A DNA stretch of 19,862 nt from a virus (Duplodnaviria; Heunggongvirae; Uroviricota; Caudoviricetes), in the IMG/VR virus record IMGVR_UViG_2516143081_000003; one strand, written 5' to 3'. Below are positions 1 to 18,541 of this stretch, in pieces (the stretch's first letter is position 1; every line of letters starts with the position of its first letter). A program made the translations under genes and the position numbers. Below the pieces are notes generated by a model. That model searched no databases, had not been told where the DNA came from, and was given only the letters and a program-made list of their open reading frames with translations.

Positions 1-1284
1 TTACAGACTTCTGGAAGGTTGCGCAGCTCTTACAACACGCGGTTGATCTTCCGCAGCGTCTTCCAGCGCACTTAAATCACGGTCTTTCACCTCTGGCATT
101 TTCAGCGCAGAGATTAAACCAATCACTGAATATGCCATGATCATAATGGCGATCGGATACCAGGATTCCGTCATGGTGCAGAAAATACCCGCCAGGATAG
201 GACCAAAACCGGAAGCGATAAGACCACCAATTTCTTTAGAAATAGCCATCCGGGTAAAGCGGTTTTTACAGCCGAACATTTCTGCCATGGTAATGTTTTC
301 CAGAGCAAATAATCCCAGCACCGCACAGTTATGAATCACAATCAGTGCAACCATAATGGTGCTCGGGGCATAGCTTTTATCTACAATGATAGAAAGCATT
401 GGCCATGCCAGCACAATCGCGGAGGTATTCATAATAATATACGGGATCCGGCGACCAATTTTATCGGATAACCAACCAAGGAACGGAATGGTCATAAAGC
501 CGAGAATCGAACTGATCATCAATGCATCTGTTGGAATTGCTTTGTTAAACAATAACGTCTGCACTAAATAGCCTGCAAGGAAAGTCTGAATTAACCCGGA
601 GTTACCCGCCTGACCAAAACGCAGCCCTGTTGCCAGCCAGAAGGATTTGCTCTGGAACATGCTACCAGCAGGTGCAGGTTTTGCTGTCGGTTGGTTACTG
701 TCGTTAACCTTCTCAAAGACCGGGCTTTCTTTCAGATTCATACGCAACCAGATAGCAAAGACCATCACGACAACACTCGCCAGGAACGGTATACGCCATC
801 CCCACGCCAGCAGTTCCTCTTTACTGAGAATGAAGAACATAAAGGCCCAGATTGCCGTTGCGCTCAAGGTTCCGCAGTTAGTTCCCATAGCCACAAATGA
901 GGAGATAATTCCGCGCTTACCTTTTGGCGCATATTCCGCCAGCATCGTACCGGCACCGGAAATTTCCGCACCTGCACCCAACCCCTGAATAATACGCAAC
1001 GTCACCAGCAAGATGGGTGCAAAAACACCAATCTGTGCATAGGTCGGTAACACACCAATTAAGGTGGTACAGATCCCCATCATGGTGATGGTAATAAAGA
1101 GCACTTTTTTACGCCCTATTCTGTCGCCCATTTTGCCGAAAATAAATGCTCCGACAATACGCGCCACATAACCTGCACCGTAGGTTCCCATTGCCAGAAT
1201 TAACGCCATTGCCGTTGATGATTCAGGAAAAAATATTTCATGAAACACTAACGCTGCGCCGAGCGAATATAACTGGAAATCCAT
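1..1284 (-). CDS. ydfJ: MFS transporter (metabolite:H+ symporter family), apparently N-terminally truncated at the prophage junction
   Basis: 427-aa ORF with multiple hydrophobic helices and the MFS loop motif FGKMGDRIGRKK. It begins MDFQLYSLGAALVF, which in related transporters lies about 30 residues in, inside TM1. An in-frame TGA sits 2 codons upstream of the ATG at 1282-1284. Confidence 0.85.
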   Translation of the reverse strand: MDFQLYSLGAALVFHEIFFPESSTAMALILAMGTYGAGYVARIVGAFIFGKMGDRIGRKKVLFITITMMGICTTLIGVLPTYAQIGVFAPILLVTLRIIQGLGAGAEISGAGTMLAEYAPKGKRGIISSFVAMGTNCGTLSATAIWAFMFFILSKEELLAWGWRIPFLASVVVMVFAIWLRMNLKESPVFEKVNDSNQPTAKPAPAGSMFQSKSFWLATGLRFGQAGNSGLIQTFLAGYLVQTLLFNKAIPTDALMISSILGFMTIPFLGWLSDKIGRRIPYIIMNTSAIVLAWPMLSIIVDKSYAPSTIMVALIVIHNCAVLGLFALENITMAEMFGCKNRFTRMAISKEIGGLIASGFGPILAGIFCTMTESWYPIAIMIMAYSVIGLISALKMPEVKDRDLSALEDAAEDQPRVVRAAQPSRSL

Positions 1285-1887
1285 AATTCACAGGTGTTTT
1301 TTCCCATCCTGTGGTTTCCTTGGCGTTTTCTAGGTTTTTTCAGATAGTTGCATTTTTTAAAAAGCATCCTAAGTTCGATCTCAGTGTCTATCTGGGGCCC
1401 ATTTCTGTCCCATATATGCCCCAAAAAAACTCCTCAACAGATAAGTAGTTTTTTCATGGAGTTACGCGTAAAATCAATAACGGCTGGAAATCATTCAATA
1501 CTCGCACTATCGAAAAATTTACCAGCCAACCGCAGCACGTTCTTGCATAAGGCGTGTCTGCGGTTTTTCAACTATTCAGATACATCACTCCCATCACATT
1601 CATTCCTCCACATCAAAGGCATATAGGCTATATCACCTTGATATTTTTCTTCTTCAGATAAAAACTGTTATCTATGTATACTTTTAAACCCAATCCGTGT
1701 AGAGTCTCTGCATAAGATAGTTTGCAGTTGCCACTTCAGCTTGCGCCATAAACCGCCTGATTTTTGCCGCCATCTGTTAGCATTCCTGTATACCTGAAAC
1801 GACAATGTTTATCTACGAACTTTAAGAACACCCAGGATAAAAATTGTCAACTATATCATATATAACACATTACTAATTCGAGGCTAT

Positions 1888-2001
1888 ATGAACAGCATAC
1901 TGATAATCACTTCGCTCCTTATCATATTCAGCATTTTTAGTCATGCTCTAATAAAATTAGGGATTGGCATATCCAATAACCCAGACAAAACCGATGTATA
2001 A
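1888..2001 (+). CDS. Candidate 37-aa hydrophobic small protein ([37 protein letters not shown])
   Basis: Not in the ORF track. ATG at 1888 with GAGG 4 nt upstream; one predicted TM helix; lies in AT-rich DNA between the prophage junction and ydfK. Confidence 0.25.
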
Positions 2002-2069
2002 GTCAACATATCCTGAATCAGACATACAATATCGCAATGAAAATCAATAATATTTTAAGGAATATATTC

Positions 2070-2303
2070 ATGAAATCAAAAGACACCCTAAAGTGGTTCC
2101 CTGCGCAGCTTCCTGAAGTCAGAATTATCCTAGGGGATGCTGTAGTGGAAGTAGCAAAACAGGGAAGACCTATCAATACCAGAACATTGCTTGATTACAT
2201 TGAAGGAAACATAAAGAAAAAATCATGGCTGGATAACAAAGAATTATTACAAACAGCGATATCAGTTCTTAAAGACAACCAAAATTTAAATGGTAAAATG
2301 TAA
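2070..2303 (+). CDS. ydfK: Small cold-shock-associated prophage protein YdfK (77 aa)
   Basis: ATG at 2070 has AAGGA 8 nt upstream; the ORF-track start at 2037 has no RBS. Protein MKSKDTLKWFPAQLPEVRIILGDAVVEV... recognised from recall. Confidence 0.8.
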   Translation: MKSKDTLKWFPAQLPEVRIILGDAVVEVAKQGRPINTRTLLDYIEGNIKKKSWLDNKELLQTAISVLKDNQNLNGKM

Positions 2304-2462
2304 TATAATAAACTTACTTTTTTATCATTTTTCCACTTTAACAACATTTTGCTCCACTTTTCCACGACCAAACAACTTGAAATCTGGTTAAAATAACACG
2401 CAACACTATTCTTCTTCCTTGAGTCCGCCCGGAACTCGAAAAACAAACCGAGTTAAAGCCAT

Positions 2463-2488
2463 TTTTCACAAAATCGATTTTGGGTCTC
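2463..2488. other. Candidate orphan invertase crossover-like site (perfect 14-bp palindrome CAAAATCGATTTTG inside a 26-bp dyad)
   Basis: TTTTCACAAAATC|GATTTTGGGTCTC lies about 130 bp upstream of pinQ. The half-sites resemble the A-tract half-sites of Hin/Gin/Cin/Pin crossover sites (for example TTATCAAAAACC) but differ at the centre. No second copy found in the window. Confidence 0.3.
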
Positions 2489-2619
2489 ACCAAAGTTACG
2501 GGGTTGCATACGCATTCGTTTATTTTCGAACGTGTACATACAAATATGCACAAAAATAATCAAAATTATTTTCTGAGATGCATTATGATATGAACACCAA
2601 TTTCGTATAGAGTCTCACT

Positions 2620-3210
2620 ATGTCTCGAATTTTTGCTTACTGTCGGATATCAACGCTGGATCAGACCACCGAAAATCAACGCCGGGAAATCGAAAGTGCA
2701 GGTTTTAAAATCAAACCTCAGCAAATAATCGAAGAACACATTAGCGGCTCAGCAGCAACCAGTGAGCGTCCTGGTTTTAACCGGTTGCTTGCTCGCCTGA
2801 AATGTGGTGATCAATTGATTGTGACAAAACTGGATCGCCTTGGTTGTAATGCAATGGATATCAGGAAAACAGTGGAACAACTGACCGAAACAGGTATCAG
2901 AGTGCATTGCTTAGCATTGGGGGGCATTGACCTGACCAGTCCAACAGGAAAAATGATGATGCACGTAATTTCAGCAGTCGCTGAATTTGAACGAGACCTT
3001 TTACTTGAACGCACTCATTCCGGGATAGTAAGAGCCCGCGGCGCAGGGAAACGTTTTGGTCGACCACCTGTGTTAAATGAAGAACAGAAACAGGTGGTAT
3101 TCGAACGAATTAAGTCAGGTGTAAGTATAAGTGCCATTGCCCGGGAATTCAAAACCTCGCGGCAAACCATTTTAAGAGCCAAAGCAAAACTTCAGACACC
3201 TGACATATAA
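2620..3210 (+). CDS. pinQ: Serine recombinase, DNA invertase Pin/Gin/Hin family (196 aa)
   Basis: N-terminal resolvase catalytic domain with the active-site Ser in YCRISTLDQ; C-terminal HTH ([19 protein letters not shown]). Confidence 0.95.
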
Positions 3211-3307
3211 AAAATAATCTCGGTGTGAGATGCTTTACGTCTTCCAAGCCCCCTTCCTTGCCGTAAATGGAGAGATACATCTAATTATAGAATTTATATG
3301 TTTTACC

Positions 3308-3883
3308 CTACGGCAGTGCTGGCCATTCAATATCCGGTGCAGTTGATGTATCAACACGGTTCAGCAACACCCGATACTTTTTCCAGGCTTCCAGCAACAA
3401 GGTTTCTTCCTCCGTTGCGATCTCCAGATCCACAGCATCCTGAAGCGGCGCTATATGCTCACTGGCTATCTGCATCAGGCTGTTTTTTGTTTCTTCCGCC
3501 TCCCGGATCCGGAACAGTTTTTCTGCTTCCGTATCCTTCACCCAGGCTGTGCCGTTCCACTTCTGATATTCCCCTCCCGGCGATAACCAGGTAACATTTT
3601 CCGGTAACGGACCGAGTTCAGAAATAAATAACGCGTCGCCGGAAGCCACGTCATAAACCGTTTTACCCCGATGATCTTCAACGAGATGCCACGATGCCTC
3701 ATCACTGTTGAAAACAGCCACGAAGCCTGCCGGAATATCTGGCGGTGCAATATCGGTACTGTTTGCTGGCAGACCTGTATGAGGCGGAATATATGCGTCA
3801 CCTTCACCAATAAATTCATTAGTTCCGGCCAGCAGATTATAAATTTTTATGGTCCGTGGTTGTTCACTCATTCTGAATGCCAT
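3308..3883 (-). CDS. tfaQ: Tail fibre assembly protein (191 aa)
   Basis: Tfa-family sequence. Its ATG at 3881-3883 overlaps the stop codon of the upstream chimeric ORF, as in stf-tfa pairs. Confidence 0.9.
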
Positions 3884-5217
3884 TACGCAAGCCTCACAAT
3901 ATAGTTAAATGCGATGTTTTTGACGGTGTTTTCCGCGTTACCAGCAGCGTTAACGGTGATGGTATGTCCATGTGAACCAATCGCAACGGAGTGCGTATGA
4001 GCACCAATACCGACAGTATGTGCGTGTGCACCTGCGCTTGCAGCAGTATCTGATGGTCGGTCCTGCACGAACGTCAGCGTCTGCCCGTTCCATACCGGCA
4101 TACAGCGCATCGCCGAGCAGAAATCACTGAGAACATCCCACGCCTTACGCTGTGTGGTCAGCCAGGCATTACAGGTGATGCGCGGCTCCGTGCCGCCAAA
4201 ACCGTCCGGCACCGACTGGTCGCAACACTGGCCGATGACATACAGCGCCCATTTATCCACATCTGCCGCACCAAGACGTTTACCCATGCCGTAGCGCGGG
4301 TGGGTCAGCATATCCCACAGACACCAGGCCATGTTGTTGCTGTATGCTGGCTTAAACGTTCCGTCCTGCTGACGGATGACGCAGGCATTATGCTCACAGA
4401 GATAAAACACGCTGGAGGGATCATCCGGCATCCATTTGAGGCCAAACGGCGTCTCTTTGTCGCCAAATTTAAGGTACTGCTCCTTCCCGCAGTGCGGGCA
4501 GGCAACATGAAAACGCATAAAATGCGGGGATTCACTGGCTGCACGCTCAATCTGGCAGGTGCCTCTCACTTTGGGCGTGGAGCCACGGATGGATTTTGGC
4601 CAGACAGAGCCTTCAATACGCTTATCGCCCAGGAACGTCGGAGAGCCTTCCTGTTCAATATCCTCATCAAAGGCAGCAAGTTCATCATAACCCGCCACAT
4701 CCACTGTCTTTTCACGGTAGTTTTTTGCCGCTTTACCGCCCAGGCACCAGAAGCCACGCCCATTGGTGAAACGCTTCATGGTGAGCGTGTTATCCCGGTG
4801 CTTTTTGCCATACCACGGGGCCAGCGCCAGCAGCGAAGGAATATCACGGATGGTCGGCTCAACGTGGGTTTTCATAAAGTTCTCGGCATCACCATCCGTC
4901 GGCAACCAGATAAGTGTGTTGCGCTGCTTATGCTCTATGAAGTAGGCATAAACACCCAACAGCATTTTGGAATAACCAACACGGGCAGACTTCACCACAT
5001 TCACCTCGCGGATGTAGTCGCTGCCCATCGCATTCATGATGGCCCGCTGAAAGGGCAGTGTTTCCCAGCGCCCTTCCTGGTATGCGGATTCTTTCGGGAG
5101 ATAGTAATTGGCATCCGCCCATTCAACGGCGGTCTGTGGCTCCGGCCTGAACAGTGAGCGAAGCCCGGCGCGGACAAAATGCCGCAGCCTGTTAACCTGA
5201 CTGTTCGATATATTCAC
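3883..5217 (-). pseudogene. stfQ: In-frame chimera: terminase large subunit A N-terminus (aa 1-284), internal segment of tail tip protein J (aa 285-390), side tail fibre C-terminus (aa 391-444)
   Basis: Residues 1-284 match recalled lambda gpA (GTG start overlapping Nu1, as in lambda). [20 protein letters not shown]...FVQDRPSD matches recalled lambda J. The C-terminus ends ...[11 protein letters not shown] like lambdoid Stf. Joints at about nt 4366/4365 and 4048/4047. Confidence 0.85.
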
Positions 5218-5737
5218 TCAGCAACCCCGGTATCAGTTCATCCAGCGCGGCTGCTTTGTTCATGGCTTTGATGATATCCCGTTTCAGGAAATCAACATGT
5301 CGGTTTTCCAGTTCCGGAAAACGCCGCTGCACCGACAGGGGGATCCCGTCGAGAATACTGGCAATTTCACCTGCGATCCGCGACAGCACGAAAGTACAGA
5401 ATGCGGTTTCCACCACTTCAGCGGAGTCTCTGGCATTTTTCAGCTCCTGTGCGTCGGCCTGCGCACGCGTAAGTCGATGGCGTTCGTACTCAATAGTCCC
5501 TGGCTGGAGATCTGTCTCGCTGGCCTGCCGCAGTTCTTCAACTTCCCGGCGCAGCTTTTCGTTCTCAATTTCAGCATCCCTTTCGGCATACCATTTTATG
5601 ACGGCGGCAGAATCATAAAGCACCTCATTACCCTTGCCACCGCCTCGCAGAACGGGCATTCCCTGTTCCTGCCAGTTCTGAATGGTACGGATACTCGCAC
5701 CGAAAATGTCAGCCAGCTGCTTTTTGTTGACTTCCAT
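5192..5737 (-). CDS. nohA: Terminase small subunit, lambda Nu1 homologue (181 aa)
   Basis: Near-identical to recalled lambda Nu1 ([29 protein letters not shown]..., winged HTH); cos lies immediately upstream. Confidence 0.9.
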
Positions 5738-5739
5738 TG

Positions 5740-5960
5740 TTCATTCCACGGACAAAAACAGAGAAAGGAAACGACAAAGGCCAAAAAGCCCGCTTTCAGC
5801 ACCTGTCGTTTCCTTTCTTTTCAGGGGGTATTTTAAATAAAAACATTAAGTTACGACGAAGAAGAACGGAAACACCTTAAACCGGAAAATTTTCATAAAT
5901 AGCGAAAACCCGCGAGGTCGCCGCCCCGTAACCTGTCGGATCACCGGAAAGGACCCGTAA
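5740..5960 (-). other. Lambda-type cos region; the 12-nt cohesive-end sequence GGGCGGCGACCT (cosN) is at 5915-5926 on the minus strand
   Basis: The minus strand reads GGGCGGCGACCTCGCGGGTTTTCGCTATTTATGAAAATTTTCCGG..., matching the recalled lambda left end through cosB into Nu1. The plus-side flank resembles the lambda right end. Confidence 0.85.
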
Positions 5961-6125
5961 AGTGATAATGATTATCATCTACATATCACAACGTGCGTGG
6001 AGGCCATCAAACCACGTCAAATAATCAATTATGACGCAGGTATCGTATTAATTGATCTGCATCAACTTAACGTAAAAACAACTTCAGACAATACAAATCA
6101 GCGACACTGAATACGGGGCAACCTC

Positions 6126-6359
6126 ATGTCAACGAAGAACAGAACCCGCAGAACAACAACCCGCAACATCCGCTTTCCTAACCAAATGATTGAACAAATT
6201 AACATCGCTCTTGAGCAAAAAGGGTCCGGGAATTTCTCAGCCTGGGTCATTGAAGCCTGCCGCCGGAGACTGTGCTCAGAAAAAAGAGTTTCTTCTGAAG
6301 CAAACAAAGAAAAGAGTGACATTACTGAATTGCTCAGAAAACAGGTCAGACCAGATTGA
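6126..6359 (+). CDS. ynfO: Small lambda-right-end-like protein (77 aa), possible ribbon-helix-helix fold
   Basis: ORF MSTKNRTRRTTTRNIRFPNQMIEQINIALEQKG...; basic N-terminus followed by an Arc/MetJ-like segment; weak RBS. Confidence 0.65.
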   Translation: MSTKNRTRRTTTRNIRFPNQMIEQINIALEQKGSGNFSAWVIEACRRRLCSEKRVSSEANKEKSDITELLRKQVRPD

Positions 6360-6416
6360 AGCAATTTAGATAATCGTGCAGACTACGCCCCCTCATATCA
6401 CATGGAAGGTTTATCT

Positions 6417-6827
6417 ATGGATCAGGTAGTCATTTTTAAACAAATATTTGATAAAGTTCGAAACGATTTAAACTATCAATGGTTTTATTCTGAGCTAAAA
6501 CGTCACAATGTCTCACATTACATTTACTATTTAGCCACAGAGAATGTTCATATTGTATTAAAAAATGATAATACAGTGTTATTAAAGGGCCTAAAAAACA
6601 TTGTGTCTGTCAAATTTTCAAAGGATAGGCATCTTATAGAAACGACCTCTAATAAGCTGAAATCCAGAGAGATCACATTTCAGGAATACAGAAGAAACCT
6701 TGCTAAAGCAGGAGTTTTTCGGTGGGTTACAAATATCCACGAACAAAAAAGATATTACTATACCTTTGATAATTCATTACTATTTACTGAAAGCATCCAG
6801 AAAACTACACAGATCTTACCACGCTAA
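6417..6827 (+). CDS. ydfO: DUF1398-like prophage protein of unknown function (136 aa from the second ATG)
   Basis: ATG at 6417 has GGAAGG 7 nt upstream; the ORF-track ATG at 6402 has no RBS. Very AT-rich codon usage, consistent with an acquired accessory gene. Confidence 0.75.
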
Positions 6828-6978
6828 ACCATAACGTCCGGCTTCTCTCACTCCTGAGCCGGACTGCATTGGTTTAATAAAAACCATCAACAATTGTGAT
6901 TTAGATATTCGGAACCATTCAAATATAACAAAACCCCGTAAAAACGAGGTTTATGGATAAATTTTATTATTGAATACA

Positions 6979-7152
6979 TCAGATTAAATTAATCTTGACA
7001 TCATAGCTTTCAAGACCCGTCATTTTTTCCCGTGCGGTAAACTGAATACTGGTAACTTCTTTCCCGGTCTTTTTCTTAAGTTCAATAATTTTTTTTGTTA
7101 TATATTCAGAAATATCTGCTTCTGCTTTTGTTTTTAAGTTTTCAATATTCAT
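6979..7152 (-). CDS. gnsB: Gns-family small protein (57 aa; MNIENLKTKAEADISEYITKKIIELKKKTGKEVTSIQFTAREKMTGLESYDVKINLI)
   Basis: Not in the ORF track (under 60 aa). Tandem ATGs at 7155 and 7152 behind AGAGGAA; recognised Gns family. A stem-loop followed by a U-rich tract lies downstream. Confidence 0.75.
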   Translation of the reverse strand: MNIENLKTKAEADISEYITKKIIELKKKTGKEVTSIQFTAREKMTGLESYDVKINLI

Positions 7153-7323
7153 CATTTCCTCTTTTAGTCTGTTATGACTTTCCAGTTACACAGTAAGTCG
7201 ATTATATGGTGCAAACGTGTAAAAGATAAGATGAAACATCGCAATAATCAACATACGATAGTCTAAATTTTACACAAACAGACAAAGAGAATTTTCCTGA
7301 ATTATCAATGCAATAGCATCAAA

Positions 7324-7479
7324 TCAACTCAAGAGCCTTATTGCTGCTTCCAGAATTTCTTCTGAAGTAACATGTCGATCCGCGGCTACATAAATGACTT
7401 TATGATCTCCGGTCAGAGATGGAAACCCTGCGGCCATTACAGTAAGGTGTGTTTTTTCGCCATTTGGATATTCACGCAT
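7324..7479 (-). CDS. ynfN: Small prophage protein YnfN (51 aa from MREYPNG...)
   Basis: ATG at 7479 with GGAG about 11 nt upstream. Alternative starts are the ATG at 7500 (58 aa) and the GTG at 7515 used by the ORF track. Confidence 0.6.
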   Translation of the reverse strand: MREYPNGEKTHLTVMAAGFPSLTGDHKVIYVAADRHVTSEEILEAAIRLLS

Positions 7480-7595
7480 GATGGTGTTAACTCCAGTCAT
7501 CGCTGGCACTACCACTGCTGGTTCAGAGTTAAAAAAACTATGATTTTTTTCATGATGTTACCGTAGTATGTGAGTATCCATCGAATAGACACCAA

Positions 7596-7625
7596 GCAAA
7601 AAAGCTCCCGAAGGAGCCTTCATTT
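7596..7625 (-). terminator. Rho-independent terminator (GGCTCC-TTCG-GGAGC followed by UUUUUUGCUU on the minus strand)
   Basis: GC stem with tetraloop and U-tract, about 200 nt downstream of the cspI stop. Confidence 0.5.
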
Positions 7626-7824
7626 TCACTTTTTTAAATCCAACGACAGACGGCTGGCATTTAAGTATTGTGAAATATTATCAAATGTAATCATCATTGA
7701 TTTACAAAAGATACATTTTGCCCCGAAAGGATTCATGTCAGAAACATCAAAAGATGATGTTCTATACTGGGAACCATGACAACACGGGCATCTAAAGTGA
7801 ATATGGTTTGTAATATTGTCTACC

Positions 7825-8037
7825 TCAAAGCGCCACTACATGAACAGCGGCAGGACCTTTAGGTCCGTTCTCAATACCAAATTCAACTTCCTGATTCTCA
7901 GTTAATGTTTTGAAATCGTTGCTCTGAATTGCTGAGAAATGGACAAACACATCTTTGCTGCCATCTTTCGGCGTGATGAAACCAAAACCTTTTTCAGGGT
8001 TAAACCATTTCACTAAACCAGTCATTTTGTTAGACAT
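7825..8037 (-). CDS. cspI: Cold shock protein CspA family (70 aa)
   Basis: [23 protein letters not shown]...; RNP1 motif KGFGFI and RNP2 motif VFVHF. Confidence 0.95.
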
Positions 8038-8399
8038 AATTATTACCTTTTGAAGAAATTAGCCCTTGGGCAGAATGGTCCGAAAAAAAATATCAGAGAG
8101 AAAAACCAACAAGGAAATCTCAAGAGGTACAAATAATAAAATTATAACAATGACTGCTTCAGATAAATTTGTAACAAACCAGAACACCATTAACGCATGA
8201 TTAACCACCCATAGCAAGGATTACTTTTGTAAAGAAAAACACAGCAATGAAAGAATAGCTTTATTTATTAATAAAACGTGTCATTCTGATTAAGACCTTT
8301 TATCTTACCCTTAAGATTTCAGGAATTTTGGCTCATGGAAGAGTCCTTTTTATTTAAATTTTACATTCCGCGATGTAAATGTTCCGATTTAATATTACC

Positions 8400-9423
<1,024 letters not shown>

Positions 9424-9427
<4 letters not shown>

Positions 9428-9735
9428 AGATATTTATGATGAGGACGCTCGTGCTTATTGGCAGGATTTTCAATCTTAAAGGAGTACTGATGCTGCAGAT
9501 AAGACTCAACTTTTTCTGACAATTTTTCTGCTACTTCCAGGAAGACTTGCCGGACGCTCCTTCTGGCTGCTGCCTCATAAAACTCCAGCGCAGCTCCTTC
9601 AACACGGTCCATGGCGACATCCAGGTCAAAAATTTCACCGTCAAAGCGTTCTTTGTCCTGTAAGGCTACAGTTACCGTAACTTTATTCTCAAAATTACGG
9701 ACTCCTTTCACAACCAGTTCATAGTCTTGAGTCAT
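9424..9735 (-). CDS. ydfR: DUF1327-like protein inserted between holin and endolysin (103 aa)
   Basis: ATG at 9735 with GAGGAGAG 7 nt upstream; its stop overlaps the rrrQ start (ATGA). Confidence 0.7.
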
Positions 9736-9739
9736 TGGA

Positions 9740-9955
9740 TTACTCTCCTCTCGCAGCCTTACGCCTGTCTTCTTTAATCTTGAAATAAAGATTTGTCAGA
9801 TACGTCAGCAGGCCAAAAACCAGGCTACCCAGCACACCGATTGCAGCCCACTGTGACGGAGTTACTTTATCGAGTAACTGCAATGCCCAGAAACCAGCAT
9901 TACCCGCCGATGTGCCATAGGCAACACCTGTTGTTAACTTATCCATTGATTTCAT
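9740..9955 (-). CDS. essQ: Class II holin / pinholin, phage 21 S-like (71 aa), with a dual-start motif M-K-S-M
   Basis: Close to recalled S21 (...[60 protein letters not shown]). ATGs at 9955 and 9946 behind GGGGTGAGGA. Confidence 0.85.
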
Positions 9956-10174
9956 ATCCTCACCCCGATGTACACGGATGGTGCAATATGTTTGAAAAGA
10001 TCGGAGTCTACGGGGTAGTTTTGACAGCACACGTTGTTCTCAACGGCGCTAAAAAAACATACACATTAAAAATGTGGGTAATTATTTTGAAAGAAAGTCA
10101 TATATAAAATAATAATACGAGAAATGTTTTCATATTTAGTGTACTGTATACGGCCATTTATACAGGAAAAGCCT

Positions 10175-10345
10175 ATGTCAGAACGTAAAAACTCAAAATC
10201 ACGCCGTAATTATCTCGTTAAATGTTCCTGCCCAAACTGCACCCAAGAGTCAGAACACAGTTTTTCAAGAGTACAAAAAGGTGCCCTTTTGATCTGCCCT
10301 CATTGCAACAAAGTATTCCAGACAAATCTTAAAGCTGTAGCCTGA
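10175..10345 (+). CDS. Candidate zinc-ribbon small protein (56 aa; MSERKNSKSRRNYLVKCSCPNCTQESEHSFSRVQKGALLICPHCNKVFQTNLKAVA)
   Basis: ATG at 10175 with AGGA 7 nt upstream; paired Cys motifs CxCPNC and CPHC. Possibly the gene I recall as ynfU, but I am unsure of that name and location. Confidence 0.55.
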   Translation: MSERKNSKSRRNYLVKCSCPNCTQESEHSFSRVQKGALLICPHCNKVFQTNLKAVA

Positions 10346-10402
10346 TTGATTTTATTAGTAACAAGTATTTTTTATATTTTAATAATATATTTAAAGCAGA
10401 TA

Positions 10403-10427
10403 ATAAAAAACCCGCCTGAGCGGGTTT
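10403..10427. terminator. Bidirectional rho-independent terminator (CCCGC-CTGA-GCGGG)
   Basis: Flanked by an A-run upstream and T-run downstream. On the minus strand it reads stem plus UUUUUUAUUAUC and would terminate cspB; it is weaker on the plus strand for the zinc-ribbon ORF. Confidence 0.6.
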
Positions 10428-10708
10428 GAGATTGTGGTGCTTTTTGTGGGAGTCATCCACTTACGCACTTTGTTTTGCCATGCCAGCAGTTAGCTTCTGC
10501 TGTAAAACTATTCATGCAGCAAACCTGCACTTCACCACAATGGTTAGCATACTTTTCCTGATTAAGATTTTGCCAAATATGCTAGCCATTGTTTCATGTA
10601 TTGGACCTCCTTACTTTTTATTAAAGAGATCCAATATTCACTACTCTGTCCGTATCTCTACTCAGGCATCAGCCTTCTTCGTTATCGTATACAGACGAGC
10701 GATGAATT

Positions 10709-10924
10709 TTAATCAGTAATGATGACATTTGCTGCTGCAGGACCTTTAGCACCACTCTCTATAGAGAAGGTAACCTTTTGACCTTCAAATAAGGTTCGAT
10801 AATTATCATTCTGAATCGCAGAAAAATGCACAAACACATCTTTACTACCATCAACAGGAGAAATAAAGCCGAAACCTTTATCAGCGTTAAACCATTTTAC
10901 TAAACCAGTCATTTTATTTGACAT
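10709..10924 (-). CDS. cspB: Cold shock protein CspA family (71 aa)
   Basis: [23 protein letters not shown]... with RNP motifs. The upstream 5' UTR contains a cspA-like GCCGAAAGGC element just before the RBS. Confidence 0.95.
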
Positions 10925-11224
10925 TCTACATTCCTTAACTTGAGCCTTTCGGCATAAATGGTTTGCATAACAGAAACGACTTCGTACTTAATTGGAGAGA
11001 CTCAAAGAAGGAATAAGTGAATAACACCTGAAATGAGAACTGCTTTAGTAAACTACTTCGTATATCGTCTGTTCTTCAAACCGACGCAATCATTAACGCA
11101 TAGTTGAACATATGAAGCAATGTTTATTTTAGACATCCAGCCATCTTCAACCCCATCAAAAAACTATAGCTTTCTTCAGGAACGTGTGTATAGTGCGCCA
11201 AGTTATCAGTATTAAGGAATTTTT

Positions 11225-11437
11225 TTGTCCCGTAAAATGACAGGAATTGTCAAAACCTTTGACGGCAAAAGCGGCAAGGGTCTTATCACCCCATCCGATG
11301 GTCGTATCGATGTCCAGCTTCATGTTTCAGCGCTCAATCTCCGCGATGCAGAAGAAATTACCACCGGATTACGCGTGGAATTTTGCCGGATAAATGGTCT
11401 GCGTGGCCCTTCAGCTGCCAATGTTTACCTTTCATGA
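11225..11437 (+). CDS. cspF: Divergent CspA-family paralogue (70 aa), TTG start
   Basis: TTG at 11225 with AAGGAA 5 nt upstream. Cold-shock domain fold, but the RNP1 motif is degenerate (KSGKGLITP). Confidence 0.8.
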
Positions 11438-11491
11438 GCTATATTAAAGCTTTAATTTCAGGCCCCATCGGATCACACATGGAGAGTTTTT

Positions 11492-11581
11492 ATGAATAAC
11501 CCCGTCTGTCTTGATGACTGGTTGATTGGCTTTAAAAGCTTATGCTGTACTTTGGCCGTAATAGCTCTGCTAATAATATAA
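11492..11581 (+). CDS. Candidate 29-aa hydrophobic peptide ([29 protein letters not shown])
   Basis: Not in the ORF track. ATG at 11492 with GGAGAG 5 nt upstream; C-terminal TM-like segment; lies between cspF and a terminator. Confidence 0.35.
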
Positions 11582-11728
11582 TAAGCAGACTCATTGTGTT
11601 TAGGGACATTGTACTGGAAGAAAACATTTTAAACATCAGGCAAATAACCAAGTCACCAGCTAAATAATAAGTTAACAGACATGAGTCCCGGGATGAGATT
11701 CAACATTACCATTGCCCCATTTAAAGCA

Positions 11729-11765
11729 CAAAACCCGCTCATCAGCGGGTTTTCTACTTTTTCTT
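11729..11765. terminator. Rho-independent terminator (AAACCCGCT-CATC-AGCGGGTTT followed by TCTACTTTTTCTT on the plus strand)
   Basis: Strong for plus-strand cspF transcripts. On the minus strand it sits about 40-60 nt downstream of a candidate late promoter, in a tR'-like position. Confidence 0.6.
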
Positions 11766-11798
11766 AACGTCGGGTATACAAAGCCCATCGTTGAAAAA

Positions 11799-11827
11799 AT
11801 TTTATCCATATTTTTTGAAAAATGCAA
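11799..11827 (-). promoter_or_regulatory. Candidate late promoter (PR'-like) immediately downstream of Q
   Basis: Minus strand reads TTGCAT (11827-11822), 17-nt spacer, TAAAAT (11804-11799); located about 30-60 bp past the quuQ stop, as PR' is in lambdoid phages. Confidence 0.35.
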
Positions 11828-11858
11828 ACATCATGTCGCCATCTTCAGCAAAAATCAT

Positions 11859-12611
11859 TTATCTCGTCACCTTCCTCAATTGCGCTTCCGCGTATGCTTC
11901 TTCCTGCCAGCACTTTGTTACCAGTTTACCAATGACGTCCGCATACCCCTTATACCACTGATAATCGGTCAGGTCTGGTACCAGCTTCTGGACATGACGT
12001 CGTGCCAGCGTGGTCGGTAAACGACTAAACCGGTTTCCATTACAACGCCCACAAATCTTATATACCGGTACGCCATGAAACCGGGTTCTTTTTTCATCCA
12101 GAACAATCCCTTTACCCTTACACCCTCTGCACGCTGTGCTGGCTTCGCCCTTACCATGGCAATGCTGACATAGTTCCTTCACCCATTCTTCCTTGATTAC
12201 AGATTCCCCGCGTCTGTAGTGTTTCACCACTTCGCGCAATACATTATAAAATCCCGTACCTGAACAATGCTCACAGCGAGCCTTACTTGCCGCAGACCTG
12301 GAGTAATCAGCAAAGGCAAAACTCACGAGGTAAGGAATAATCTGTAACCGGATTTCTTCACTCAATTTGTTCAATGTCGGGTTATCCAGTGCCATCGCGT
12401 AATTTAGCAGGCCTTCAATCGCAAACTGAGGGTCCTGAACACCAACTTTTGCCAGAAATAAGGCCAACCCAAGTGGTGCTTTCGACTGCACCATCCCCTG
12501 CGCTGCCATTACATCCGTAATTGTTAAACAACCGGTGCCTGTCGCTGGAGCGTCATCGCTCAATTTTGGAGATTTTGGGGAGTAATATTTTGGTAAGGCT
12601 TCAAGGTTCAT
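11859..12611 (-). CDS. quuQ: Late-gene antiterminator Q (250 aa)
   Basis: ATG at 12611 with GGAGAA 5 nt upstream; Cys-rich zinc-binding region (CEHCSGTG...CQHCHGKG...CRGCKGKG...CGRCNG). The ORF-track start at 12641 is a TTG. Confidence 0.85.
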   Translation of the reverse strand: MNLEALPKYYSPKSPKLSDDAPATGTGCLTITDVMAAQGMVQSKAPLGLALFLAKVGVQDPQFAIEGLLNYAMALDNPTLNKLSEEIRLQIIPYLVSFAFADYSRSAASKARCEHCSGTGFYNVLREVVKHYRRGESVIKEEWVKELCQHCHGKGEASTACRGCKGKGIVLDEKRTRFHGVPVYKICGRCNGNRFSRLPTTLARRHVQKLVPDLTDYQWYKGYADVIGKLVTKCWQEEAYAEAQLRKVTR

Positions 12612-12624
12612 GCTCGTTCTCCAC

Positions 12625-13674
12625 TTACGCCAGTACGCCAATTGCCAGCGCGCGATCGATAAAACGAAATATCAGCTCCAGTTGAGAGCCATACTTATCT
12701 TCAAATGCCACTGTATCCGTATGCAGCTCGTTGTGATGCTTTCTGCACAAAGGCAACACAAAGAGATCATGTGCTTTTGTTCCCATTCCGCCCTGCCCGT
12801 GACCAATCAGATGATGCGGATCGTCGGCTGGCATACCGCAGCAAGCACACGGCTGTGTCTTAACCCAACGTGTGTATTTCTCCTTAACCCAGCGGCGACG
12901 TTTAGGCAGCTTCATGAAAGATTCCGGAGACTCTGGATCAACGGTGATGCTTACCACCGTCTTTTCCTGTGGTGATTTTTGTTGCTGGTGGGCGTAAGGC
13001 AACGGTGCAAGATTTTTTGTGCGTTGTTTCAATATGCTGGTGGCGGTCTGCTCTCCCGGTACGATGTCGCTTTCGCGGTACACCGAGCAGATTTTTTCCG
13101 CTGGTAATCCCAGCGAACGACGCGATACAGCCTCAGGTAGTGCATCCACCACCTGATTGCAGACCGCCCACCAGGATAATTCAGCCAAAGATAATTCCCG
13201 CTCCTGCGTACCGCTTATTGCGTGACGGATGACGTCAATCACCCATGCTGTCAGATTTTGTTGAGCAAGCAGCTCCAGTGATTCCGATGTCTGGTCACGC
13301 AGTTGGTTGTCGCAGTGCCAGCACAACACCATTGCGCCGGTACCATAACGGTGAATGACTGTTTCAGTGTGATGGTAATCGCCATTAGGCCACTGGCAGG
13401 ATGTAACATGACGTAATAGCCAGTCGGACAATGCGCCAACGCCGCCAGCAGCACGAATCACCCGTTCGTTACTAAAAAACGGCAGCAATGTTTTGTCTTC
13501 CGCCAGCGGCTGGCGAACGGCAGGAACGACTCCGGATGGCAGATTACGCATGCTTTTTGGTTCCGGTTCCACCAGCACTCGAGGATTATGAAATATCTGT
13601 ATGGATTCACGGCCCGGCTTAAGGACCACCAGCCCAAGCTCAGGCACCAGAACAGGTCTAAGTAATACCCGCAC
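12625..13674 (-). CDS. ydfU: Nin-region protein with a C-terminal HNH-type motif (DUF968-like, 349 aa from GTG)
   Basis: GTG at 13674 lies 1 nt after the stop of the upstream 92-aa ORF. C-terminus CACCGMPADDPHHLIGHG...HDLFVLPLCRKHHNELH fits an HNH zinc-binding nuclease fold. Confidence 0.8.
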   Translation of the reverse strand: MRVLLRPVLVPELGLVVLKPGRESIQIFHNPRVLVEPEPKSMRNLPSGVVPAVRQPLAEDKTLLPFFSNERVIRAAGGVGALSDWLLRHVTSCQWPNGDYHHTETVIHRYGTGAMVLCWHCDNQLRDQTSESLELLAQQNLTAWVIDVIRHAISGTQERELSLAELSWWAVCNQVVDALPEAVSRRSLGLPAEKICSVYRESDIVPGEQTATSILKQRTKNLAPLPYAHQQQKSPQEKTVVSITVDPESPESFMKLPKRRRWVKEKYTRWVKTQPCACCGMPADDPHHLIGHGQGGMGTKAHDLFVLPLCRKHHNELHTDTVAFEDKYGSQLELIFRFIDRALAIGVLA

Positions 13675-13675
13675 G

Positions 13676-13954
13676 TTACCTCCAGATCCGTTGCTGGAAA
13701 GTGCGGGACGCACGTGGTGGGCGTTCGGAATAAGGCAGCCTGACAGAGATTATCCAGTGCCGATAGTCGAGACTGAGAGCTTTCTTAACCTCGAACCCGC
13801 GCCTGCGGTAAGAATGAATCAGCCATTCGGCCTGTTCTGCAGTGCATGGAGGGTGCTGGAACCATTCAGACTTGAATGCGTGAGAATACCGCCCGTGCGT
13901 GCAGGCAAGAACGGGCGAATTATCAGAATTGTAATATTTTGCGTTGCGTGCCAT
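13676..13954 (-). CDS. Hypothetical 92-aa protein translationally coupled to ydfU
   Basis: ATG at 13954 with GGAG 7 nt upstream; stop TAA at 13676-13678 abuts the ydfU GTG. I do not recognise the sequence. Confidence 0.45.
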   Translation of the reverse strand: MARNAKYYNSDNSPVLACTHGRYSHAFKSEWFQHPPCTAEQAEWLIHSYRRRGFEVKKALSLDYRHWIISVRLPYSERPPRASRTFQQRIWR

Positions 13955-14020
13955 CGGTTTTCTCCGGTGGCACGGTGTTACTCAGCGGGAGTTCAGCCCC
14001 GCGCAAGATTGTAGATGAGT

Positions 14021-14272
14021 TTATTCTCCTGAAAAAGCAGAAAAGCCAGCTTTTATTCCGATCTCTTTCAATGCCTGTAATGAAGTGACAAACTCACCTT
14101 CGCGCAAGATAAATCCGTCCGTGACCCGAGCATCCACAAAATTAATTAACGCAGCCCCATTCTTTCGCAAACACATAATGCGGTAATGACTAACAAGATT
14201 TCCATTTTCAACGCACACAGCATAGAGGCCATCTTCACAAAAAATTTTACGCAGTTCTTCGATGTTCATCAT
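14021..14272 (-). CDS. rem: Small protein of unknown function (83 aa), probably Rem
   Basis: Tandem ATGs at 14272 and 14269 with GGAAGGA 5 nt upstream; immediately downstream of the hokD terminator. Name assigned by position and recalled length only. Confidence 0.55.
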   Translation of the reverse strand: MMNIEELRKIFCEDGLYAVCVENGNLVSHYRIMCLRKNGAALINFVDARVTDGFILREGEFVTSLQALKEIGIKAGFSAFSGE

Positions 14273-14385
14273 CAGAATCCTTCCGGATAATTAGCTCTCC
14301 CCTTTAAGGGACCATCCCTCTTATCCCTGCGCGCTACTTAAGTATTTTTGATTCTATTCCGGCACCGTCCAGAACTTCAAACGCG

Positions 14386-14420
14386 TTGAAAATAAAACAA
14401 AAACCCGCCGAAGCGGGTTA
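14386..14420 (-). terminator. Rho-independent terminator of the relB-relE-hokD operon
   Basis: Minus strand reads AACCCGC-TTCG-GCGGGTT followed by UUUGUUUUAUUUU, about 70 nt after the hokD stop. Confidence 0.65.
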
Positions 14421-14487
14421 AGTGCGGGTGCGTTGAGGATGCCTGCCACATCAGAGGTGGCGAGGGATTTCTCCCCCGCCGGGTCTC

Positions 14488-14643
14488 TTACTCCTCAGGT
14501 TCGTAAGCTGTGAAGACAGCGACCTCCGTCTGGCCGGTTCGGATTCGTACCTCGCAGAGGTCTTTCCTCGTTACCAGTGCCGTCACTATGACGGTTAAAC
14601 AGATGACGATCAGGGCGATTAACATCGCCTTTTGCTGCTTCAT
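14488..14643 (-). CDS. hokD: Hok-family membrane toxin (51 aa; MKQQKAMLIALIVICLTVIVTALVTRKDLCEVRIRTGQTEVAVFTAYEPEE)
   Basis: Not in the ORF track (under 60 aa); found by hand translation. AGGAGAAG lies about 6 nt upstream of the ATG at 14643; Hok-family TM helix and conserved Cys. Confidence 0.9.
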   Translation of the reverse strand: MKQQKAMLIALIVICLTVIVTALVTRKDLCEVRIRTGQTEVAVFTAYEPEE

Positions 14644-14714
14644 AGCCTGCTTCTCCTGTCAACGCAAAGCAGAAGTGTCACCTTCGGTGCGAAACAGAGA
14701 TGTCATGCTTTGGT

Positions 14715-15002
14715 TCAGAGAATGCGTTTGACCGCCTCGCTATATACTTCCGAGCGTTCTCTTTTCCCAACAGAAATCACGAAAACGACAACTTTCTCGT
14801 CTATAACCTGGTATACAAGGCGATAGCCTGAAGACCGGAGCTTAATCTTGTAACAATCAGGCATACCACGGAGCTTGTTTGCTTCAATCCGGGGTGACTC
14901 AAGTACTTCAACCAGCTTCTTTTTCAACTGTTCACGTACCGTCGAGCCCAGCTTTCGCCATTCCTTTAGTGCCCGCTCGTCAAAATCCAGAAAATACGCC
15001 AT
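14715..15002 (-). CDS. relE: RelE mRNA-interferase toxin (95 aa)
   Basis: Recognised sequence; start overlaps the relB stop (ATGA). Confidence 0.95.
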   Translation of the reverse strand: MAYFLDFDERALKEWRKLGSTVREQLKKKLVEVLESPRIEANKLRGMPDCYKIKLRSSGYRLVYQVIDEKVVVFVISVGKRERSEVYSEAVKRIL

Positions 15003-15241
15003 CAGAGTTCATCCAGCGTCACACGTACTGGCTTAGGATTACGAAGCCGTTCTTTCACTATCTCCACAAGTTCAGCATCTTCATCACTCAGGAGTGTCTG
15101 TTTGAACGGCAAGCGTTCATTGTCAGCGATATACTCGAGCATGAGACGAAGCGCTTCAGAAGGAGTTACACCCATTTTTTCAAGCGCGGCGTAAGAACGC
15201 GCTTTAAGTTCATCGTCAATACGCAGGTTAATGCTACCCAT
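15002..15241 (-). CDS. relB: RelB antitoxin (79 aa, ribbon-helix-helix)
   Basis: Recognised sequence MGSINLRIDDELKARSYA...; an operator palindrome lies directly upstream. Confidence 0.95.
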   Translation of the reverse strand: MGSINLRIDDELKARSYAALEKMGVTPSEALRLMLEYIADNERLPFKQTLLSDEDAELVEIVKERLRNPKPVRVTLDEL

Positions 15242-15252
15242 GTCTTACACCT

Positions 15253-15278
15253 CTTGTAATTACAAATGTCATTACAAG
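15253..15278 (-). promoter_or_regulatory. relBE operator (relO): palindrome TTGTAATTACAA within inverted repeats CTTGTAAT ... ATTACAAG
   Basis: Perfect 12-bp palindrome at 15255-15266, flanked by 8-bp inverted arms, between the putative promoter and the relB RBS. Confidence 0.7.
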
Positions 15279-15571
15279 TATCGCACTACAACATGCTTAG
15301 GGCAAGTCACGAAGGAAGTCAGAAAGTAGTCGTAAGAACGGTGATCACTGTCCGCTTTGTGCCAGGAGCAGCCATTGCTAAGTCCATCCTGTATTGTGCA
15401 GGTCAGCTCGTTTTTAAAGAGTCCGGCCATCATCTTACTGGTACAGACACCATATACTTTGTGACGGTCAGGCTACATATGCACAACTCAACTTATTCAT
15501 CTATTTTTTGCTTTAGCATGTCAGTGTTGCTTTCTCGTCGGCGGGTGAGCGGTGACCTGACCTGTCGATAA
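15266..15571 (+). CDS. ydfV: Doubtful ORF (101 aa) upstream of flxA
   Basis: ORF overlaps the relB operator and promoter region; no clear RBS; no recognisable domain. Symbol assigned by position from recall only. Confidence 0.3.
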   Translation: MSLQVSHYNMLRASHEGSQKVVVRTVITVRFVPGAAIAKSILYCAGQLVFKESGHHLTGTDTIYFVTVRLHMHNSTYSSIFCFSMSVLLSRRRVSGDLTCR

Positions 15572-15723
15572 AGGAACGTAACACGTTTTATGCAACACCC
15601 GCATGCGGCAGAAAATTATTGCCGAACGTTTACCCCTGTCAACAAGCTTTACTTTCTGAGGCGCGCCAGCCCGCGAGGAAAACAATCTGAACATCAAACA
15701 ATTAATGACACAAGAAATACGAT

Positions 15724-15750
15724 TAAAGATTTTTTTGTGCATGCCGATAG
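15724..15750 (+). promoter_or_regulatory. Sigma-28 (FliA) class 3 flagellar promoter driving flxA
   Basis: TAAAGATT (15724-15731), 11-nt spacer, GCCGATAG (15743-15750) against consensus TAAAGTTT-N11-GCCGATAA; about 25 bp upstream of the flxA ATG. Confidence 0.7.
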
Positions 15751-15773
15751 TGCTTTTTTAAAAGGAGAAATCT

Positions 15774-16106
15774 ATGTCTGTCACAATTCAGGGAAATACC
15801 TCAACCGTTATTTCAAACAACTCCGCCCCGGAAGGAACATCAGAAATAGCCAAAATCACAAGACAAATTCAGGTGCTGACTGAAAAGCTTGGGAAAATCT
15901 CATCGGAAGAGGGGATGACGACACAGCAGAAAAAAGAAATGGCTGCATTGGTACAGAAGCAAATTGAAAGCCTCTGGGCTCAACTGGAGCAGTTGTTAAG
16001 GCAGCAGGCAGAGAAAAAGAATGAAGACGCGACAGTTCAGCCTGATAAAAAAGAAGAGAAAAAAGACGATACAAATACCGCTGGCACCATTGATATTTAC
16101 GTCTAA
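15774..16106 (+). CDS. flxA: FliA-regulated protein FlxA (110 aa), coiled-coil Gln/Lys-rich
   Basis: ATG at 15774 with GGAG 6 nt upstream; the sigma-28 promoter directly upstream and a terminator directly downstream. Confidence 0.85.
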   Translation: MSVTIQGNTSTVISNNSAPEGTSEIAKITRQIQVLTEKLGKISSEEGMTTQQKKEMAALVQKQIESLWAQLEQLLRQQAEKKNEDATVQPDKKEEKKDDTNTAGTIDIYV

Positions 16107-16120
16107 GTGACAGCCGTATT

Positions 16121-16147
16121 GTGGCCCTCATCGGGCCACTTTTCGCC
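16121..16147 (+). terminator. Rho-independent terminator of flxA (GTGGCCC-TCATC-GGGCCAC followed by TTTT)
   Basis: Perfect 7-bp GC-rich stem followed by a T-run, 15 nt after the flxA stop. Confidence 0.7.
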
Positions 16148-16542
16148 ATCAGCCTTTTCTTTAAAGACATATTATCTTTGTATCATTTCTGATAGTTAAC
16201 ATTACAAGATATAAGTAATGGACGCACTCCCAATTAGTCTATTTAAATCGCCACGAGTTTAACTGACAACCCATGATCAATTATGAATTGCAACTATTTC
16301 TGTAGTCACTTTTGTGGGGACAGTCCACAAAACTGCCAACTTCCGCTTCTTGCTCTTAGCGGACATTAGCATAGGCTATTTACCATAACGCCTCATTACG
16401 CGCACCGCCCAGACTGACTCAGCGCGTTTCTGGCATATCCCCGGTAAAACAAGTAACAAACCACCCGAAAATGAACACCAGAAACGCGACTTAAGAATCT
16501 ACCCTATGAATGGATATGCACTCAACCGAATCGATCTTGGTT

Positions 16543-17307
16543 TCAATCTTTTTTATCGGGATCAGGCTTCTTTTTAGGTAACTTCGGGGGCTTAACTTGC
16601 TGATGACTTTGCGTTCGGCGCGTAAGCCAGGGATGGTCAGCTTTAGGTTTAACATAGTATTTTGAGCGTAAATCAATACGGGCATTATCCACTCGTTCAT
16701 GGACACTCTTTTCATCATCCAGTGGTATAGGCTCCGGGCCATCAACATACTTTTCCCAGCCCAGCGCTTTCCCGTCATACAGAACGTTAATTTCACCGTC
16801 AAAGTTCTCGCATACAGTAACAACCGAATGCCTAAGTCGATATCCCCGGCCCTCACTGCGTACCTGAAACGCACTGCTTTTGTACTGGAAAGTGAGATTT
16901 TTAGACAGAACGCGCTTCGCCTGTAGGCTGAAGATATAACCCAGTTCCTCTTCAGAATGGTGCACATCAAGATGAGCATTATCAGTAGTACGAGGCGACG
17001 TAGCGAACCGGTTGTTATAGGCTTCAATAAAGGTCGGCAACCATGCATTTGCTGTTTCAATATCACTGATATTCTGAAGCCGCATTTCTTTGACCAGCCT
17101 GTCCTGTAGTGTCTGATTGGCGCGCTCTACCCGCCCTTTTGCCTGCGGGCTGTTGGCATGGATTGGCTCGATGCCCAGTGTCTTTATCGCACGAGTGAAC
17201 TGGGTCAGCTCACCTTCCCGCTCTGGGTTATTTACCCTGAATATACTGTGTCTATCAGAGTAGAGAGCGAGCGGTACGCCATGATCATTAAGGTAGCCTT
17301 CCAGCGT
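16543..17307 (-). pseudogene. intK: 5'-truncated integrase-core (rve, DDE) transposase/integrase fragment
   Basis: One continuous minus-strand frame reads ...YLNDHGVPLALYSDRHSIFRVNNPEREGELTQFTRAIKTLGIEPIHANSPQAKGRVERANQTLQDRLVKEMRLQNISD... with the D and E motifs. It opens only after a TGA at 17310-17308 and lacks the N-terminal DNA-binding part and first catalytic Asp region. Confidence 0.7.
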
Positions 17308-17513
17308 TCAAATATCTTCACTCGATTAACGCCAAGCGCTCGCTGATCAATCGCGCCACCTTCATATGTGACACGCTGAACATCGATGTTCGGGCGCTCT
17401 TTCAAAGCCCAGAATGCTTCAGTGATTAATATCGTCGCCTGCTCCTGTGTCATTCCTGGTCGACATATCCAGGCATCCAGAGCCTCACGAGCCTGTTCAG
17501 GAGTGATTTTCAT
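17232..17513 (-). pseudogene. ydfX: 93-aa ORF overlapping the start of the DDE fragment in another frame, probably a remnant
   Basis: Its 3' third overlaps the DDE-fragment frame at a +2 offset; its 5' end overlaps dicC by 17 nt. Symbol assigned by position from recall. Confidence 0.35.
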
Positions 17514-17727: not shown

Positions 17728-17741
17728 TTAAAACACCTTTA

Positions 17742-17808
17742 TTGTTAGTAATAACTAACAAGATAGATGTTAACAAAAACATAGTCAATACGATTTAGCA
17801 TTAGCTAA
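17742..17808. promoter_or_regulatory. dicC-dicA divergent promoter region with two palindromic operator motifs (TTAGY-N4-RCTAA)
   Basis: TTGTTAGTAATAACTAACAA (perfect 20-bp palindrome, 17742-17761) and TTAGCATTAGCTAA (17795-17808). Confidence 0.6.
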
Positions 17809-17810
17809 CT

Positions 17811-18540: not shown

Positions 18541-18541
18541 T

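Follow-up and report, generated by a model that had tools for sequence, protein, structure and literature searches.

We found that the open reading frame (ORF) at 3883-5217 on the minus strand of the window (the whole 19,862-nt stretch of DNA that was analysed) joins pieces of three lambda-like late genes in a single frame. The ORF runs from a GTG start to a TAA stop and encodes 444 amino acids, and the list of ORFs, Pfam, the lambda alignment and PHROGs all describe it as gpA'::gpJ'::Stf', that is, a piece of the terminase large subunit (gpA), a piece of the tail tip protein (gpJ) and the end of a side tail fibre (Stf). Judging from the sequence, we consider that this chimera most probably represents a non-functional, pseudogene-like remnant of the stepwise decay of the late region in a Qin-type cryptic prophage, and we put the probability of this reading at about 0.85.

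Composition and location of the chimeric ORF

The segments were mapped on the lambda reference NC_001416. The results of the alignment showed that nucleotides 1-854 of the ORF correspond to lambda A (nt 711-1564, 96.8% nucleotide identity; window 4364-5217, minus strand), which covers codons 1-284 of gpA and the first two bases of codon 285. Nucleotides 852-1171 correspond to lambda J (nt 16284-16603, 95% nucleotide identity; window 4047-4366, minus strand) and encode residues 261-366 of gpJ with 98% amino acid identity. The last 54 residues, with HxH 'His-box' motifs, are the C-terminus of a side tail fibre according to the lambda alignment, the structure 2xgf and PHROGs (window 3883-4048, minus strand). 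In this segment, nucleotides 1186-1335 of the ORF align with 85% identity to the 150 nt at the 3' end of lambda orf-314 (stf, nt 21824-21973); the stf ends of other Qin-type loci are closer, with 97.6-98.8% identity over this stretch. In addition, the PHROGs follow each other along the ORF in the order terminase large subunit, central tail fibre J and tail-fibre C-terminus (the C-termini of phrog_295 and phrog_8239). The ORF is therefore not colinear with one known protein, and the alignment gives its pieces three separate origins. The original prediction of a three-part fusion of A, J and stf, with residues 1-284 of terminase A and the last 54 residues of a side tail fibre, was borne out by the lambda alignment, Pfam, PHROGs and the PDB sequences. 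It also gave the length of the gpJ piece correctly (about 105 residues), but these residues come from the first third of the 1132-aa gpJ and not from its middle.

All three pieces are truncated domains. The Pfam family GpA_ATPase (PF05876) matched residues 47-285 of the ORF (model positions 3-237 of 247, E = 9.7e-51), and the gpA segment lacks the last 10 positions of this model and the whole nuclease domain. It retains the Nu1-binding N-terminus and the Walker A/B region, and the translation contains KSARVGYS and VDVAGYDE, which we take to be the Walker A and B motifs of gpA; the ATPase domain of a large terminase subunit (TerL) can thus be recognized from PF05876 together with both motifs. 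However, the homology to gpA ends at residue 284 of 641, so the ORF has neither the endonuclease domain (PF20454, for which Pfam gave no match in the 444 aa) nor the prohead-binding tail. The 444-aa protein, as predicted from these domains, is not a functional terminase, and a folded, active N-terminal gpA module is conceivable. The gpJ piece covers only positions 1-37 of 164 of the Pfam model Phage-tail_3, which makes it a fragment of one domain, about a third of it; by sequence it matches residues 261-367 of 8iyk_J in the PDB. A full TipJ is a multi-domain protein of about 1130 aa with a C-terminal receptor-binding region, and the ORF has only its residues 261-366. Meanwhile, the Stf piece matches the C-terminal 53 residues of the T4 gp37 tip (2xgf residues 190-242, E = 3e-20), and it would presumably be a descending His-box strand without its partner. 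Of the N-terminal attachment region, the collar and the C-terminal receptor-binding/His-box region of a side tail fibre, 54 residues are left; the collar domain (PF07484) had no match in the 444-aa ORF but is present in relatives of 601 aa and in the precursor state S1 described below. The protein is on deposit at NCBI as 'terminase large subunit family protein', and this name is misleading for a chimera. Furthermore, an antisense ORF of 285 aa lies over the gpA segment (4300-5157, plus strand); none of the PHROG families covers it, and most probably it is a shadow ORF of the gpA frame.

The chimeric ORF lies between nohA and tfaQ. Positions 1-4047, 5209-16727 and 17294-19862 of the window are colinear with the Qin prophage of Escherichia coli K-12 MG1655 at 98.7-99.9% identity. 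The prophage can be identified as Qin by its position beside ydfJ and by its typical gene order, which runs as in Qin from ydfJ through pinQ and tfaQ to nohA, ynfO, ydfO, gnsB, cspI, rrrQ and essQ, and continues after essQ with cspB/F, relBE, flxA, dicC/A, dicF and dicB. In the alignment of the late region, a K-12 counterpart is absent only for 4048-5208. Elsewhere in the window, the 566 nt between flxA and dicC (16728-17293) have a counterpart of only 58 nt in MG1655, and K-12 seems to carry a deletion there, near ydfW/ydfX.

Both ends of the ORF are those of native lambda genes. At the downstream end, the ATG of tfaQ, a tail-fibre assembly gene (3308-3883, minus strand), shares one base with the TAA of the ORF (TAATG), which confirms the predicted start/stop overlap, and lambda stf and tfa likewise share one stop/start base (nt 21973). 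At the upstream end, the GTG is overlapped by 26 nt by the 3' end of nohA, a full-length Nu1 homologue of 181 aa (5192-5737, minus strand). In lambda, too, the A gene begins with a GTG that lies 26 nt within nu1 (711 versus 736). Because this architecture is native to lambda, the overlap with tfaQ is uninformative about the fusion. In addition, the deletions that produced the chimera left the native gpA start and the native stf stop/tfaQ start in place, so any in-frame combination between them results in one long ORF.

Upstream of nohA there is an intact cos region (5738-5926, minus strand; 97.4% identity to lambda nt 1-190), in which the cosN 12-mer (5915-5926) is followed by the cosB R sites. 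The cos packaging signal and the small terminase subunit encoded by nohA have therefore survived beside a truncated large subunit. The serine invertase gene pinQ (2620-3210, plus strand), found in the ORF listing, by Pfam and in the K-12 alignment, is convergent with tfaQ. A scan of 3000-6500 for promoters and terminators gave counts no higher than those in shuffled sequence. If late transcription extends to the 444-aa ORF, a low level of translation is possible.

Precursor states and deletion joints

The original prediction assumed two large deletions with a loss of about 15 kb and proposed that intermediate deletion states be sought in Qin-like prophages of other strains. Two such intermediates, S1 and S2, were found in near-identical strains. 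With them, the number of deletions rises to at least four, nested in each other. In the comparison with lambda, the missing DNA corresponds to about 19.9 kb (14.7 kb and about 5.2 kb) instead of 15 kb.

S1 (locus L016, protein P0035) has the joint between gpA 284 and gpJ 261, keeps gpJ to about residue 811 and then continues with a separate, overlapping stf ORF of 367 aa in another frame. Its J/stf joint is thus out of frame, and A::J and stf are separate ORFs. S2 (loci L006-L009, protein P0004) encodes one protein of 733 aa, which consists of gpA 1-284, gpJ 261-600 and about 108 Stf residues. L016 and L006 are 100% identical on either side of a segment of 1399 nt that is absent from L006. In turn, S2 and the window have 0 mismatches over 1-4048 and 1-6 mismatches over 4047-11216 (7171 nt), and the window state is S2 minus 867 nt. 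In their 390 shared codons, the window and S2 differ by one nonsynonymous substitution (S171T), which is too few for a test of selection. Meanwhile, the HSP425 state (L002) branched off independently from an S1-like parent via two other deletions.

From these states, the history of the locus may be reconstructed as follows. A first deletion (D1) would have joined gpA codon 284 to gpJ codon 261 with the loss of about 14.7 kb, and a second (D2) would have fused stf, in another frame, to about codon 811 of gpJ. We infer both that D1 came before D2 and by what process the DNA was lost. A third deletion (D3, 1399 nt) would have joined gpJ codon 600 to the His-box region of stf; it would have taken out the D2 joint and by chance restored the frame, which gave the 733-aa ORF. 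Finally, a fourth deletion (D4, 867 nt, 289 codons) would have joined gpJ codon 366 to the last 54 stf codons and left the 444-aa ORF. The J/stf joint of the window is accordingly a replacement joint rather than the one first formed between these two genes. Since S1 is out of frame and S2 is in frame, the frame was lost and then regained, not maintained; with such an ancestor, it cannot have been kept open by continuous selection. The claim that A, J and stf were joined in frame therefore stands for the surviving joints, but the lineage passed through the out-of-frame S1.

The two joints were expected near 4366 and 4048, and they were found at 4364-4366 and 4047-4048 (minus strand). The A/J joint shows a microhomology of 3 nt, GGA (G/GA), lies in the same codon phase in both parents and is the same in L006-L009 and L016. 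The J/stf joint, left by the 867-nt deletion from the 733-aa state, shows an exact microhomology of TA, with an imperfect 6/8 match (ATCrGrTA) around it over 4047-4054. When the true parents are compared, the microhomologies are GGA (A/J), ATA (S1 to S2) and TA (S2 to the window); those at the two joints of the HSP425 branch are CAGC and GATA(C/A)CGGGG. Microhomology is therefore present at the joints of the window, as had been suspected, but it is minimal (GGA and TA) and did not guide the frame. In the loci examined, neither an IS element nor a long repeat was seen at the joints. With the parents S1 and S2 recovered and such short identities at the joints, the deletions look like events of illegitimate recombination at short microhomologies.

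The allele is extremely rare and recent. Neither the whole ORF nor either joint was found in any of 5426 complete RefSeq E. coli genomes. In the protein collection, the exact 444-aa protein was found on two contigs and two versions with 99% identity on three more (about 5 contigs). Because the allele is so rare and so young, its retention cannot be inferred. The second carrier of a 444-aa ORF (3001-4335 of locus L010, GCA_028598035.1) differs at 16 codons, which lie within ORF codons 101-274; 12 of the differences are synonymous and 11 restore the lambda allele. The pattern resembles that left by gene conversion, with an intact lambda-like A gene at another place in the same genome as the donor.

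Open frames, recurrent breakpoints and other explanations

The chance of two successive in-frame joints had been put at roughly 1 in 9, and this value is too low. In the lambda late genes, identical k-mers pair in the same phase with a frequency of 0.37 for 2-mers, 0.40 for 3-mers and 0.60 for 8-mers. At about 0.37-0.40 per joint, the chance for two joints is about 0.15, and this is before allowing for the ORF having been picked because it is long. Furthermore, at least 10 deletion states of the interval between nohA and tfaQ were found across strains. In 7 of 10, the frame is open from the gpA GTG to tfaQ (444, 733, 601, 517, 474 and 703 aa, and the 320-aa stfQ of K-12). In the other three it is not open, namely in DLI.5a, in TL-14, which is the 601-aa type minus 10 nt, and in HSP425, which has lost the gpA start. 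The fraction of open states is higher than one third, but several of the states are relatives of each other, and in-phase GAT-A microhomologies are common to several. Some bias toward open states, either mutational or selective, may exist.

With regard to a mutational bias, we found that some breakpoints recur in other prophages. Gene A codon 349 ('...DWMKTKGD', GGGGAT/ACGG; lambda A nt about 1758) has about 20 partners among the 120 best protein matches. They include Stf at many positions, gpJ 10, 101 and 768, gpB 288, gpH 604, gpE 154 and 242, and Tfa 45. This gpA349 hub was seen in the proteins P0009-P0119 and in the loci L001, L011, L013 and L017-L020, in prophages at different chromosomal sites. 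The gpA of the window ends at codon 284, and the gpA349 site is therefore absent from it. Smaller hubs are gpA389 (at least 6 partners), gpA519 (at least 5) and Stf 'D/MRGW' (at least 5). In addition, gpJ366 (CAGATA/AGG, window 4047-4054), at which the J/stf joint of the window lies, is also joined to J958-960 in the unrelated fusions P0009/P0012. Similarly, gpJ600 (GTGGATA/ACGG, L016 1660-1663) is the left end of the S2 deletion and the right end of an HSP425 deletion in the same parent. Many of the hubs read (G)GAT/A, with GAT (an Asp codon) in phase 0.

It is possible, though we lean against it, that deletion itself is biased and that this bias, rather than pure chance or selection, led to the in-frame outcome. 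Such a process would use a few preferred sites, often (G)GAT/A, and keep the frame more often than one time in three. The reuse of gpJ366, gpJ600, gpA349, gpA389, gpA519 and Stf 'D/MRGW' agrees with such a process, as does the rise of same-phase pairing from 2-mers to 8-mers. Moreover, GATA is in phase 0 at 59 of its 82 occurrences in the lambda late genes, and GATA-GATA joints would be in frame in 58% of cases. Joints at gpA349 that are out of frame also exist in other prophages (L018, L020), which argues for a mutational rather than a selected hot spot. However, the joints of the window share only 3 and 2 nt, and its A/J joint is not at GATA. The list of partners was drawn from the 120 best protein matches, so it favours in-frame fusions, and a search with full-length lambda A, in which the best place per record was taken, returned mostly intact copies and gave no unbiased distribution of breakpoints. 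Finally, no enzyme or structure accounts for the hubs. To our knowledge, none of the consensus sequences for Pin crossover, Chi, IS-mediated events, type II/IIS restriction or HUH nicking fits them; in the hix/gix consensus, we take the crossover to be about 12 bp from the GATAA end and not within it. Hairpins in single-stranded DNA were considered as a cause of the hot spots and rejected, for the minimum free energies of 61-nt stretches at eight sites fell at percentiles 0.25-0.63 gene-wide, which is unremarkable.

The more general idea is that lambda-like late-region decay in E. coli is non-random and proceeds via a few reused hot spots, with gpA349 the strongest, which are often rebuilt at the joint. 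We regard this as rather unlikely at present. Within the hot-spot reading, hubs would tend to leave open chimeric ORFs, because most of them are in-phase GAT-A. If it is true, a site-preferring break or joining activity would be behind the decay. Recurrent breakpoints, if they are real in an unbiased census, would likewise reveal a hitherto unrecognized site preference in prophage decay.

The original prediction concluded that either short homology guided the deletions or the fused product has been retained. Neither alternative is supported, since the microhomology is 2-3 nt, the frame of S1 is broken, and the allele is too young and rare. For a retained protein, two functions could be proposed. 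It could be a dominant-negative terminase that titrates Nu1/NohA, in which case it is conceivable that packaging by superinfecting lambda-like phages is blocked, or its translation could serve TfaQ through TAATG. The gpA piece does keep the Nu1-binding N-terminus and Walker A/B, nohA and cos are intact alongside it, and most states of the locus are open down to tfaQ. StfE2, moreover, offers a precedent, since this chimeric tail-fibre protein of a cryptic prophage has an anti-phage role (PMC12529663). Nevertheless, we consider a retained function very improbable. The frame was broken in the immediate ancestor S1, the allele is extremely rare and recent, and other lineages lack the gpA start (HSP425) or are frameshifted (DLI.5a, TL-14). 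Coupling to tfaQ needs only the stf frame at the stop, which all states keep, whatever the joints upstream, and just 54 Stf residues are left. We thus infer that the 444-aa ORF has no function.

An artefact of assembly from collapsed lambda-like prophages can practically be dismissed: most E. coli genomes do carry gpA, J and stf in several copies (a median of 4-6 places per genome), but the same joints occur in the independent assemblies GCA_012746575.1 and GCA_028598035.1 (the latter with a contig of 4.64 Mb), the A/J joint also occurs in five further assemblies with S1 or S2, and the 2-3 nt at the joints are far under any assembler k-mer.

As a remnant of stepwise decay, the locus is informative in two ways. 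The fully resolved series from S1 through S2 to the window, found in near-clonal strains, shows the speed and the step sizes with which a late region erodes, and it makes clear that selection cannot be read from a long open frame across a chimera. In addition, the comparison of alleles brought out the recurrent breakpoints.

Comparison with other chimeric prophage genes

The Qin prophage of K-12 carries stfQ (b1547) and nohA (b1548) at the same locus and with the same neighbours as the window, among them ynfT and ydfK, and the flanks are 98.7-99.9% identical. Its stfQ (L004 4886-5848) is also an in-frame fusion, in which the gpA GTG and codons 1-3 ('VNI') run into stf. Unlike the ORF of the window, it lacks both the gpA body and a J piece but keeps 317 stf codons instead of 54. 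In addition, nohA encodes 189 aa in K-12 and 181 aa in the window. Read in this way, the 'side tail fibre' gene of K-12 is itself a gpA::Stf chimera, and its joint (lambda nt 719) appears to have come from a DLI.5a-like out-of-frame state by a deletion of 1208 nt.

S2 and S1 (P0004 and P0035) share the identical A284/J261 joint and near-identical flanks with the window, and they are direct precursors of its allele. They differ from it in the length of their tail pieces, since gpJ is kept to residue 600 (S2) or about 811 (S1), and stf amounts to 108 to about 367 residues.

Other fusions of the gpA N-terminus in E. coli, such as the common 601-aa gpA350::Stf and the DLP12 remnant of K-12, are objects of the same type. 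All of them have the native gpA start, a truncated ATPase, a fragment of a late gene and an adjoining Nu1 homologue. However, their breakpoints are different, their partners are B, C, E, H, K, L, U, Z, J, Stf or Tfa, and most of them have one joint.

A previous study described StfE2, a side-tail-fibre chimera that is formed via Pin inversion in the e14 prophage and has a demonstrated effect against T2 (Kirigo et al. 2025, PMC12529663). PinQ, which is encoded by the same Qin prophage as the locus studied here, is an actor in the formation of StfE2, and no inversions were found in Qin itself (PMC12529663). StfE2 and the ORF of the window are alike in that both are chimeras of tail-fibre gene fragments from cryptic prophages. 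However, StfE2 arises by reversible site-specific inversion and has a substantial fibre body, whereas the ORF of the window arose by irreversible deletion, has 54 Stf residues and has no known effect. The same difference holds for Pin/Gin/Hin chimeras in general, which are reversible and use inverted crossover sites of 26 bp, whereas the joints of the window have 2-3 nt of identity and the intervening parental DNA is lost. With the ORF of the window, a known class of prophage-decay chimeras gains a new allele, which is a product of ordinary decay.
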